Sequence record: MH359124
Strand: one strand, 5' to 3'
Source: Escherichia phage SF
Length of the DNA stretch: 64,000 bases
The translations under genes were made by a program, and so were the position numbers. Positions 34,762-38,881 of this stretch are shown here, in pieces (within the stretch, counting starts at the first letter, position 1; each line of letters begins with the position of its first letter). The notes beneath the pieces are model-generated. The model was not told where the DNA came from. It saw only the letters and a list, made by a program, of their open reading frames with translations, and did not search any database.

Positions 34762-35541
34762 TTATACTCTTGGACCATATATTGCTCCAACGTTTTGCCA
34801 TGTTGGAGCTGATCCTGCTACAGCAGCACCAGGATTTGTCGGAGGTGTTGAATAACCAGCACCTGGATTAGCATATTGTCCCGGCTGACCAACTTCACCA
34901 CCTCCACCTGCATAATACCCTGTACCAGTATTACCGCCAGCACCCGGAGACGTCAAACTAGCATTACCGCCAGGCCATCGAGCACCATTATTTCCGCCTA
35001 AGCCGAATGGACGACCGCCACCGCCACCACAAACATATTTTCCCGCCCAGTTGTTGGCTTGTGAATAACCGCCGCCGCCGCCACCGCCACCGGCAATAGC
35101 TCCGCCATTATTAATTCGCAGACGTCCACCTATATCATTCTGGATACATACACCGCCATCAGATGCCCCAATTGCACCAGCGGCCCAACCATTCCCGCCG
35201 CGACCATACATCGTTACGCCGTGTATATTCAATTGAACATATTCATTCGGTGTATCTCCGTACATGAAGAATAAAGGAACATCTCTAGAATATGATACTA
35301 AATCTCCAGTGATATTAAACACTATAGGTGCACTACCTGCCTCAAAACATCTATCTCGGAACCATTGACCATTGAAGTTATGGTCTGCTCCAAGTGTGTG
35401 AATTACTTCAACAGATCGACCTATCATATTACTCATCCAAAACGGAATTCCCATTCTCAATCTCTGTGCGGCACCGCCCATCCAAGGATCTCCGGTCTGT
35501 ACCCTTGCAGACCATCCTACCCACGGTCCTTCAACTGCCAT
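34762..35541 (-). CDS. 38: gp38 long-tail-fibre adhesin, T2-type with glycine-rich motifs
   Basis: ORF track 34762..35553; ATG at 35541 preceded by GGAGG; conserved N-terminal gp37-binding region and poly-Gly islands. Confidence 0.8.
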
Positions 35542-35572
35542 ATAAACCTCCAAGGGGCCTAAGCCCCTCTTA

Positions 35573-38500
35573 TTATTTTAACAATGATTTAACTAATTTT
35601 TTAAGCTCTTCAATCTCTGACTTAAGTTCTGCAATTTCTGCAGTATGCTCATTGATTGCAGCTGTATTTAAACCAATTACACCGTTATAGTTCAAACGAA
35701 GTAAAGCTTCACCATCAGGGTCGCCTTCAACTAATTCTGGTAAAATAGCTTGAACTTCTTGAGCTATCAAACCGGCGTTAGGTTCCCATTTCTGGTTACC
35801 TTCTTCGTCAGTTCCACGTTTCTGCATATAAGTGTAACCGTTAATTTTAGAAAGCTTCTCGGAAGCATTTTCAAATTTAACAAGGTCTTTTTTAACACGA
35901 ATATCAGAACGAACATAAACGTCTCGAACATATGTAGAATAGGCGTCGCTTTGTTGGACTAAATGGCCAAAAGAAATAATAGCTTTTCCTGTTTCAGTCC
36001 ACAAAGCACCATTGGTATCCCAAAGACCTTCATGAATATGGTAAGAGTTAGACCAAGATGCAATATGAATCCCGTTAGCAACCATATTAACTCGACCGTC
36101 ACCGCCGTGTGATAATCCTGTGTCATTATCACCGATAGCAATACTAGGAGAGCCTAATCCGTTAACAGTACCAACACCAATGGCAGGAGTCTGGACTAAA
36201 GTCGGGGCGTAAAATAAACCGCTAGAGTGGAATTCGAAAATACCTACAGGACCGTCGCCACGCTCGGCATTACCTACTCGAATTATCGCTTGTCCCCATG
36301 CTTGTGGAGTACGACGCATGCCTAATTCAACAGAAGTAGTATAACCCTGACCACTAATTAAAGATCGGCCTTTAATAATGGGATAATAACTGTCTTCCCA
36401 CACACTACCAAACTCAAGGAAATAAGGTGCTTCTAAGCCCCATTGGTCATCCCATGAACCAGATTTATGTGCAACCCATTGACTAGCATTTATATAAAGG
36501 CGGTCTCTATTAAAATTAAATGTTCCTTGTCCTTGAGGAGAAAGCGATATTTCACCGGTATTTGTTATGTATACACCGCCTTGTGTAATGTAACTGTAAA
36601 AACCTAGACCATTGTCGGCACCGCCTTTACCAATATACCAATTATTCTCCCCGGCCGTATCAGAACGAATAAATGATGAATCACTAGCTAAAGGAGGATT
36701 AAGAACTATCCCAGCAGCATCTTTATTAATCCAAAGAGTGCCGGTCATCGTATCGCCTTCTTTAGCAACACGAGTAGCTATTGCATCGCGAATATTTGTA
36801 ATGTCTCCTGCTGAAGTAAACGTTTTCCAAATATCCGAGAAAATATTGCCATTACGAGCAATAGCAGCTTCGCCCCCGCCGACCAGAACGTTATCAGGGA
36901 AGTTAACAGTACCGTCTTGATTAAAACGAGATGTATGTCCTTGTGATCCATCTTCTTTGATATGGTGTAAAACAAATGTACCCGAATTAATTTCAGTACC
37001 TAAAGACCAAACAGCTTTGCTATTTAAAAACTTCTGTTTAACAATAGGATAATATTTACTTACTGCGTCATCATCAATTTCTTGGAAAACAGGAGCTGCT
37101 TGAACATATTGAATATCATAACCGCCCGCGCCTGCGCCGTGACCAGTAAATTTAATATAACCGTTTGCTGCAAACGTATTGTAACTTGATTGTAAATCTG
37201 GAATAGTAACTTTACCAGTATCTAAAGCCATACTAAACGGGCGAAGTGGACCGATATCACCATGTTTACCTTCACCGAATGCAGTAGGAATAATATGAAG
37301 ACTGCCTTCTGAACGTCTAAAAATAGCTCCATAATCTGCGTTCCAAATGCGAAGCGCATTCACAGCCCCAGATGAAATTTCGCCTGTTGTGTGAACTCCT
37401 CTATTTCCAGCAGTAACACCGGATGATTCAAATGAACCATTGACGTTCATTTCTACTTCACCAGTAGTAAGTCTTTGAATATAACTCATCCAACTAGTTG
37501 CGTCAGAAATTTCCATAACGTTTTTACGATCACCTACACTAGGATTAGTAAACGTATTACCCCATACAGAAATTGTCATATTATCAACTGAACTACTACC
37601 AGTTGTGTTACCTCTAAACATCAACGTAGAAGCATTATTACGACCATCAATATTAACAGAACCACCAATAACGTCAATATTACCTGGAGTAACTAACAAA
37701 CCGCCATGAGTATTAATGTTTGTGGTACCCTTACCGCGGAAATAATGATGATAATTACCACCTTGATAATAACCTAAAAGAGTTTGACCGTCACCGTATG
37801 CGTTATTATCGTGATATGTCACGACAGTAGCGAGAGCATAGTTTTCAGTAGGAGGAGTAGTTAAATCATTGCCATTTACAGAATAACCCATAACCATTTT
37901 TCTAAGGCTTACGGTTGATTCAGGACTATAAAGGAAAGTTCTCGTACCATTGTTTACTACATAGAAATAACCATCTTGATACCATTTTAATCCGGTATCA
38001 TTATCACCCAAAGCAATTGAAGCAGTTCCTAATTCAGAATATCCTTTAGAGTTACCTGGGGTGCCTACAGAAATAGAATGACCAGCTTTCAATCCGCCTG
38101 ACCAAGTAAATGACCAAAGATATGCGTCTAAGCCATCTCCGGCATACCAAGTTATCCCGTCATTATCTTTAACTTCATGGAATATACCGGCGCCAACAGC
38201 ATTTCGCATAACACGGAGATGGTTAATAGCTGTTTCGCTTTCTGTCAATGGGGCATTATCGGCCATTGAATAGATGTCATAATCGCCTGCAACTTTACCG
38301 TTGGTAATAACTTTATTGGTATAAATTACCGGAGTTGATACAGATTTCCATCCAAAAACTTCAGGAGAAGAAAACAAACCATTACCTGAAAATGCATAAG
38401 TGCTTTCGCTTGCAGTAGAATAATCCTGTACGCGAATATTAACTACTTGGTTAGTTGCTCCTGCATTATTAGGAGAAAAAATAATACCACGCTCACGGTC

Positions 38501-38881
38501 ATCGCCATCAAAGAAACGAAGATGAGAAGTTGAGGCGCTCTTAGAAATAAGTTCACCACCGTGGGTCATTATCTGACCTGCAGCAATAATATCACGAGTT
38601 ACGCGAGCAACACCGTTGAGATTAAAATCACCAATTTGAGTAAATACACCAGTAAGAGTGTAATCGCCTGTCTGGTTGTAGTTACCGTTATGAATAACAT
38701 TCCCGTCAATGCTACCGCCTTTAGCAAAACCCAGATCAATAATATTTCCTTGGTCATCTTTAGTAAAAAGTACACGGTCTTTTAAGTTTATAGCCAATTC
38801 ACCTTCGGCTAATACTGAAGCAGCAGGACGTGCTCCTGCAGTTTTGCTTCTTTTAAATTGTATTTGTTTTAAAGTAGCCAT
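35573..38881 (-). CDS. 37: gp37 long tail fibre distal subunit
   Basis: 1102-aa ORF; C-terminal intramolecular-chaperone-like coiled coil; synteny 34-35-36-37-38. Confidence 0.9.

Follow-up and report, generated by a model that had tools for sequence, protein, structure and literature searches.

Genes 37 and 38 of Escherichia phage SF appear to form a T2-type distal tail-fibre cassette with a mosaic gp38 adhesin resembling that of phage PP01

Genes 37 and 38 of Escherichia phage SF (species Mosigvirus sf; RefSeq NC_055749.1) were analysed in a 64,000-nucleotide stretch of sequence record MH359124, here called the window. Both genes are on the minus strand, as are all the features described below, and positions 34762-38881 run exactly from the stop codon of gp38 to the start codon of gp37. 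We hold with high confidence that this locus is a T2-type distal long-tail-fibre cassette of a T-even phage, working in the way and having the mosaic origin that we propose here, with gp38 as the adhesin at the end of the fibre. Nothing was found that contradicts the assignment itself.

The product of gene 38 (259 residues) matches Pfam models PF05268 GP38 at 242 bits (6e-72) and PF21721 Gp38_N at 71.7 bits (5e-20, residues 1-40), the curated cut-off being 25 for each model. T2 gp38 matches the same two models, while T4 gp38 matches neither of them. BLASTP gave no alignment between SF gp38 and T4 gp38 (E=1.4), in contrast to 47% identity end to end with T2 gp38 (E=9e-40), and SF gp38 also matches the structure of S16 gp38 (6F45_D, 3e-49). 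In PHROGs it falls into phrog_2056 'tail fiber protein; host specificity' (4e-108) and T4 gp38 into phrog_105 'tail fiber assembly'; neither protein matches the family of the other, and no family is common to the two. A reading made earlier from the letters alone (the sequence-only reading) had called gp38 a T2-type adhesin rather than the T4 chaperone and had named alignment with the T4-type chaperone as the outcome that would overturn it. That outcome did not arise: the Pfam, T2, S16 and PHROG comparisons all agree with the adhesin, and in the alignment it is T2 gp38, not T4 gp38, that is related. If gp38 were instead a T4-type assembly chaperone, absent from the virion, then receptor binding would fall to the tip of gp37. 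Such a view can draw on the gene name and position, which are those of T4, and on the records of RB69, KP15, wV7 and T6, in which homologous genes are called 'distal long tail fiber assembly catalyst'. However, the RB69 record's own note calls the T2-subfamily gp38 the unrelated adhesin, and gp37 of SF carries an S74-type self-chaperone and lacks the Collar/needle tip of T4, whose gp37 contains Collar and Phage_fiber domains but not S74. With sequence similarity lacking and the Pfam and PHROG families disjoint, we give the chaperone next to no chance. What T4 gp38 shares with SF gp38 is only the gene name and the place of the gene after gene 37 and before gene t; it is unrelated in sequence, has 183 residues and no glycine motifs, belongs elsewhere in PHROGs and forms no part of the virion. 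On these comparisons gp38 of phage SF is a T2-type tail-fibre adhesin and the T4-type reading is excluded. Presence at the fibre tip of the virion and a role in host range were shown for the gp38 proteins of T2, Ox2, S16 and PP01 (PMC12892980; PMC3157838), and by analogy SF gp38 would sit at the tip and set host range too.

In gp38, residues 1-40 (35422-35541) form the gp37-attachment domain, identified by Gp38_N and of RB69 type, in line with the conserved N-terminal gp37-binding region noticed earlier. It contains W7, W20 and W35, which are at least 90% conserved in the homologue alignment. In S16 gp38, tryptophan 'prongs' of the N-terminal domain have a role in docking on the gp37 tip (PMC7917993), so that by analogy this domain of SF gp38 may dock on gp37 in the same way. 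With the domain names of the paper on structure 9V85 (see below), residues 41-112 (35206-35421) are the beta-helix part of the receptor-binding domain and residues 113-259 (34765-35205), which have the sequence of the PP01 crystal except at residue 257, are the polyglycine-II sandwich displaying five receptor loops. These loops, defined as in PMC12892980 and all identical to those of PP01, are A (W119-I124, WAAGAI; 35170-35187), B (Q161-V170; 35032-35061), C (N184-W189, NNGARW; 34975-34992), D (N204-Y209, NTGTGY; 34915-34932) and E (N225-S231, NPGAGYS; 34849-34869).

Glycine makes up 32% of residues 110-259, compared with 12% of residues 1-109, and its runs include G8 (151-158), G5 (172-176) and G4 (212-215). 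For a conservation profile, SF gp38 was aligned with 40 diverse gp38 adhesins (46-97% identity; 41 aligned sequences) and mean column entropy was calculated. The glycine motifs 113-118, 151-158 and 172-183 are the most conserved, at 0.27-0.41 bits, while loops A (119-124), B (taken here as 159-171), C (184-189), D (204-209) and E (225-231) reach 2.2-2.8 bits; residues 41-112 and the N-terminal 40 residues lie between them, at 1.0 and 1.1 bits, respectively. Invariant G and GG columns are present in the same alignment. The poly-glycine islands between variable segments that had been described from the sequence are thus real, and are quantified here by both glycine content and entropy. This layout agrees with the published descriptions of gp38 adhesins, namely four hypervariable segments set among glycine-rich motifs (Trojet 2011, PMC3157838) and, in the S16 gp38 structure, ten polyglycine motifs and five loops (PMC7917993).

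The best solved-structure match to gp38 is PDB 9V85 (8e-143), an sfGFP fusion of the receptor-binding domain, residues 41-259, of PP01 gp38 (Terasaki et al., mBio 2026, PMC12892980). The PP01 protein has the same length and the same position after gp37, and 252 of its 259 residues (97%) are identical to those of SF, residues 20-256 without exception. The differences (SF residue first) are six substitutions within the first 19 residues (E4A, V8I, W10T, R13L, V14A and P19H), where the N-terminus of SF is of RB69 type, and P257S, which leaves 218 of 219 residues identical over the domain in 9V85. PP01 gp38 is folded as a beta-helix plus a polyglycine-II sandwich (PMC12892980). Because residues 41-259 of SF gp38 are identical, bar 257, to this crystallised domain, its fold is, as far as sequence identity can assign it, the same beta-helix and polyglycine-II sandwich with protruding loops.

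According to the PP01 experiments (PMC12892980), loop E is the main specificity determinant and inserts, with A228 and Y230, into the cleft between loops 5 and 7 of OmpC; p-benzoylphenylalanine (pBPA) cross-links connect G208 to loop 5 of OmpC(O157) and Y230 to loop 7, and binding depends on the GVIN insertion in loop 7, which is absent in K-12 OmpC. Y209 of loop D is essential, as is Y159 beside loop B, and loop B is a possible contact to lipopolysaccharide (LPS), with K168 and Y169 implicated in contacting the LPS sugar. Loops A-E as well as Y159, K168, Y169, G208, Y209, A228 and Y230 are identical in SF and PP01 gp38, as expected of the PP01/AR1-type, OmpC-binding subgroup of gp38. Because the five loops and these seven tested residues are all shared, O157-type OmpC is strongly predicted to be the receptor of SF gp38, and by analogy adsorption of SF would depend on OmpC with the O157-type loop 7 (GVIN). 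Experiments on the PP01 protein (PMC12892980), in which all the variable segments are identical, support the expectation that these segments govern host range. The earlier list of candidate receptors (OmpA, OmpC, OmpF, FadL and Tsx) did include OmpC, but the choice is no longer an open one, as identity to PP01 narrows it to O157-type OmpC.

Phages with gp38 at least 95% identical to that of SF come mostly from O157:H7 hosts (PP01, AR1, JY01, PEC04, HY01 and UFV-AREG1) or Shigella hosts (pSs-1, Sfk20, KNP5, sb3 and sb4), and also from E. coli LF82 and several unspecified or other E. coli. One could still argue that SF gp38 is a T2-type adhesin using a receptor other than OmpC, such as Tsx, OmpA, OmpF or FadL, since gp38 adhesins of the Straboviridae use Tsx, OmpF, OmpA and others and their specificity can switch by single changes (PMC12032242, PMC3157838); moreover, our literature search found neither a reported receptor nor host data for phage SF itself. 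However, closely related gp38 proteins share their receptor (PMC12032242), and all five loops and all seven functional residues of SF gp38 are those of PP01, whose dependence on OmpC was established by cross-linking and mutagenesis. We therefore consider a non-OmpC receptor improbable and retain O157-type OmpC as the predicted one.

The genome of PP01 is a Tequatrovirus and that of SF a Mosigvirus, and the closest genome in the searchable phage collection is that of LF82-4 (94.8% over 24 kb). On both flanks of the cassette (g35/g36 and t), identity to LF82-4 is 97-100%, whereas against Tequatrovirus phages it is 64-78% over most of the length of these flanks and rises only within ~100 nucleotides of the cassette. 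Sliding DNA identity was calculated against six references (RB69, LF82-4, PP01, JY01, PEC04 and UFV-AREG1), and the closest relative changes repeatedly from high to low coordinates. The segment 39100-38740 is RB69-like or universally conserved. It is followed by 38701-37997 (gp37 residues 61-295), with only 60-88% DNA identity to the six references; this could have been taken for a novel segment, but 90-94% amino-acid identity to KIT01, JS10 and Bp7, its closest relatives, rules that out, and it suggests a donor lineage unlike those of the other gp37 segments. Over 38020-36460, PEC04 and UFV-AREG1 are closest (91-100%), and over 36460-36100 (gp37 residues ~808-928) only LF82-4 is (80-98%). This last segment, 36100-36460, just before the gp37 tip, is only 41-76% identical to the five other references. 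RB69 is closest (96-100%) over 35740-35440, which covers the chaperone end of gp37, the intergenic region and gp38 codons 1-33, and the rest of gp38, 35320-34762, is of PP01/LF82-4 type, mostly at 95-100%, with RB69 at 38-86%.

The switch within gp38 is sharp. Residues 1-60 are identical to those of RB69 gp38, which has different loops and departs in DNA from about codon 78 onwards. A breakpoint test on 243 informative sites, RB69 versus PP01, places the change from RB69 type to PP01 type between 35311 and 35308, at codons 77/78, with RB69-type and PP01-type sites in a ratio of 23:9 on one side and 5:206 on the other (Fisher p=2e-20). The block 35321-35440, where each of the six references shows 98-100% identity (100% over 35321-35380), ends ~10 nucleotides upstream of this crossover. 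On this pattern, gp38 is an RB69-type attachment domain joined to a PP01-type binding domain, and gp37 is a patchwork from several donors.

A chimeric appearance might also come about with no recombination at all, through uneven selection on a conserved N-terminus and a fast-evolving C-terminus, and the N-terminal part of gp38 is indeed generally more conserved than the loops. However, this would not account for the abrupt change in informative sites at codon 77/78, and it is the binding domain that is 95-100% DNA-identical to Tequatrovirus while the adjoining downstream holin gene is only 64-77% identical; therefore rate variation cannot explain the pattern, and we regard uneven selection as very improbable indeed. 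Recombination is preferred, and it is likely, in our opinion, that SF carries a natural inter-genus graft, in which recombination immediately downstream of 35321-35440 joined a Tequatrovirus-like, PP01-type domain specific for O157 OmpC to an attachment domain of RB69 type, in a Mosigvirus backbone. LF82-4 has the same gp38 graft as SF. Modular exchange of gp38 at this locus has long been proposed (Tetart 1998; Trojet 2011, PMC3157838; PMC12032242). The literature already covers the gene pair, its architecture and its fold, as well as the receptor of an adhesin whose binding domain is identical, and the mosaicism, with its long-known mechanism, is the only point added here. If true, the inter-genus graft would be a clean natural case of what Tetart and Krisch proposed, modular exchange of gp38, and would give a testable prediction of receptor and host range for phage SF. 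The locus would also illustrate, from nature, how adhesin modules are exchanged between T-even genera, which bears on the engineering of host range, and the practical value lies in a receptor prediction for both SF and LF82-4, namely OmpC of O157/Shigella type recognised via loop E of gp38.

The partner of the adhesin, gp37, also follows the architecture known from S16. Over its last 195 residues it aligns to the tip of S16 gp37 (6F45_A, 1e-46), and residues 992-1102 (35576-35908) are a C-terminal intramolecular chaperone of Peptidase_S74 type (Pfam PF13884, 1e-12 at 992-1051), preceded by the distal tip, residues 908-991 (35909-36160), as placed by alignment to the S16 tip structure. A Gp34_trimer-like trimerisation domain lies in the shaft at residues 449-550 (37232-37537; Pfam PF21446, 2.4e-8) and also matches the gp34 structures PDB 4UXE/5NXF (6.6e-12 to 1.1e-11). 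The region of the cleavage motif DVYVR^SDIRVKK is conserved in SF, PP01, LF82-4 and PEC04, and its core VY.RSDIR.K is found also in T2. In SF it aligns with the S16 site DLNVS^SDRRIKK, where gp37 cleaves itself, loses its C-terminal 113 residues and thereby uncovers the surface on which gp38 docks (PMC7917993). By analogy, SF gp37 would cleave itself between R991 and S992, freeing 111 residues (35576-35908), and residues 908-991 are the predicted docking surface for gp38 once the chaperone has been removed. At 1102 residues gp37 can be described as long, as in the sequence-only reading, but it is not unusual: it is average for its group (RB69 1103, PP01 1109, JY01 1103, LF82-4 1101, PEC04 1104 and UFV-AREG1 1101 residues), and T4 gp37 has 1026 residues and T2 gp37 1341, so that SF gp37 is shorter than that of T2. 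An unusually long gp37 was rejected on this basis, its length being typical against 1101-1109 in six relatives.

Genes 36, 37 and 38 are probably one late transcription unit. Exact copies of the T4-type late promoter consensus TATAAATA on the minus strand occur only at 39573-39580, 26 nucleotides upstream of the ATG of gene 36 (a consensus match only), and at 44607-44614, 34 nucleotides upstream of the ATG of g34. No exact copy was found between the one at 39573-39580 and gene 38. This placement is consistent with a late unit g36-g37-g38, as weak evidence for it. Between the gp37 stop and the gp38 ribosome-binding site (RBS), the terminator-like scan and RNA folding revealed a G+C-rich intercistronic stem-loop (mRNA GGGGC-UUAG-GCCCC; 35553-35568) with -18.7 kcal/mol and z=-2.9, the stem of which is kept from RB69 to T2. 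Where RB69, PP01, LF82-4, PEC04 and T2 have the tetraloop C(UUCG)G, SF has UUAG, by one C-to-A change. Apart from this hairpin, the scans for sigma-70 promoters and terminators gave only consensus-level noise.

Taken in sequence, the fibre would then work as follows. Genes 36, 37 and 38 would be transcribed together late in infection, and gp37 would trimerise into the distal half-fibre with the aid of its own C-terminal chaperone (992-1102). The chaperone would cut itself off between R991 and S992, as suggested by the conserved motif and the precedent of S16 and T2, and this cleavage would expose the hydrophobic tip of the trimer. One gp38 monomer (259 residues) would dock there via its N-terminal domain with Trp 7, 20 and 35, judging from the S16 structure, so that the beta-helix and polyglycine-II sandwich would hold the five variable loops at the very end of the fibre. 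There gp38 is predicted to bind O157-type OmpC, loop E occupying the cleft formed by OmpC loops 5 and 7, and loop B would make a minor contribution through LPS. As to its origin, the cassette would be a recombinational mosaic in a Mosigvirus backbone, with the attachment domain and the chaperone end of gp37 of RB69 type, the binding domain of PP01 type, and the gp37 shaft made of patches closest to JS10/Bp7/KIT01, PEC04/UFV-AREG1 and LF82-4.

Several points weigh against this account. The autocleavage of gp37 and the co-transcription of g36-g37-g38 are steps that we infer, and TATAAATA has 5 matches in the window against 7.7 expected by chance. The OmpC assignment rests on sequence identity to PP01, and the literature search mentioned above yielded nothing on the receptor or hosts of SF itself. 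Residue 257 of gp38 is P in SF and S in PP01, although this position is not in a loop and the majority of the family has P. Finally, LF82-4, which has the same binding domain, was isolated on E. coli LF82 (O83:H1), so that the OmpC alleles recognised go beyond O157 alone.

Among other known fibres, the gp37-gp38 complex of S16 (PDB 6F45; Dunne et al. 2018) has the same architecture, with a self-cleaving gp37 chaperone and a monomeric gp38 cap in which an N-terminal attachment domain is joined to a polyglycine-II sandwich as in SF (3e-49 for gp38 and 1e-46 for the gp37 tip). However, its loops are unlike those of SF in sequence and length, and its target is Salmonella OmpC. The gp38 proteins of T2, T6 and Ox2 (Henning group 1987; Tetart 1998; Trojet 2011, PMC3157838) share with SF the Pfam families and the arrangement of glycine motifs and hypervariable segments, but their loop sequences differ and their receptors are therefore expected to differ as well. 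RB69, the type Mosigvirus, shares with SF the first 60 residues of gp38 and, at 96-100% DNA identity, the chaperone end of gp37 and the intergenic region.

The locus as a whole is a canonical T-even long-tail-fibre module, g34-g35-g36-g37-g38-t, with the same gene order as in T4, T2, PP01 and RB69, and the list of open reading frames (ORFs) shows all six genes in the same orientation. Gene 37, encoding the distal subunit of the long tail fibre, spans 35573-38881 (1102 residues plus a TAA stop; Pfam Peptidase_S74 and Gp34_trimer; phrog_1699, E=0), and its product is identical to the deposited protein YP_010096464.1 / AWY07754.1 ('long tail fiber protein distal subunit [Escherichia phage SF]'). 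Gene 38, encoding the receptor-binding adhesin, spans 34762-35541 (259 residues plus a TAA stop). Upstream of gene 37 lies gene 36, for the gp36 hinge or distal connector (38890-39546, 218 residues; Pfam Phage_T4_gp36, 1e-29), and beyond it are an ORF of 374 residues (39606-40730), matched in Pfam only by ILEI and taken as gp35 from its position, and an ORF of 1277 residues (40739-44572), taken as gp34 from its size and position.

The gp38 start is the ATG at 35541, with a GGAGG RBS 6 nucleotides upstream, which gives a product of 259 residues co-linear from residue 1 with the gp38 proteins of PP01, RB69 and S16. A mechanical call had started at the TTG at 35553 (an ORF of 263 residues), but this TTG sits inside the intercistronic hairpin, and the ATG is favoured because of the RBS and the match of the N-terminus to all homologues. 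Exact look-up of the 259- and 263-residue forms of gp38 found neither in the protein collection searched, which suggests that the deposited record uses another non-standard start call.

Downstream, the holin gene t occupies 34072-34731 as an ORF of 219 residues (Pfam Phage_holin_T, 5e-89, over residues 6-218), while the deposited SF holin, YP_010096462.1, has 165 residues. Because of this difference from an ORF matched by Phage_holin_T, the deposited annotation seems to lack part of the N-terminus. No exact late-promoter consensus was found upstream of gene t (34732-34775); AATAAATA, one mismatch from TATAAATA, occurs there ~19 nucleotides 5' of the ATG.

In gp35, the Pfam match to ILEI (Interleukin-like EMT inducer, PF15711) covers residues 58-131 at 30.2 bits, above the gathering threshold. 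The same match is found in gp35 of T4 and T2, at 35.9 and 36.7 bits, respectively, so that it characterises the T-even gp35 family in general rather than SF in particular.

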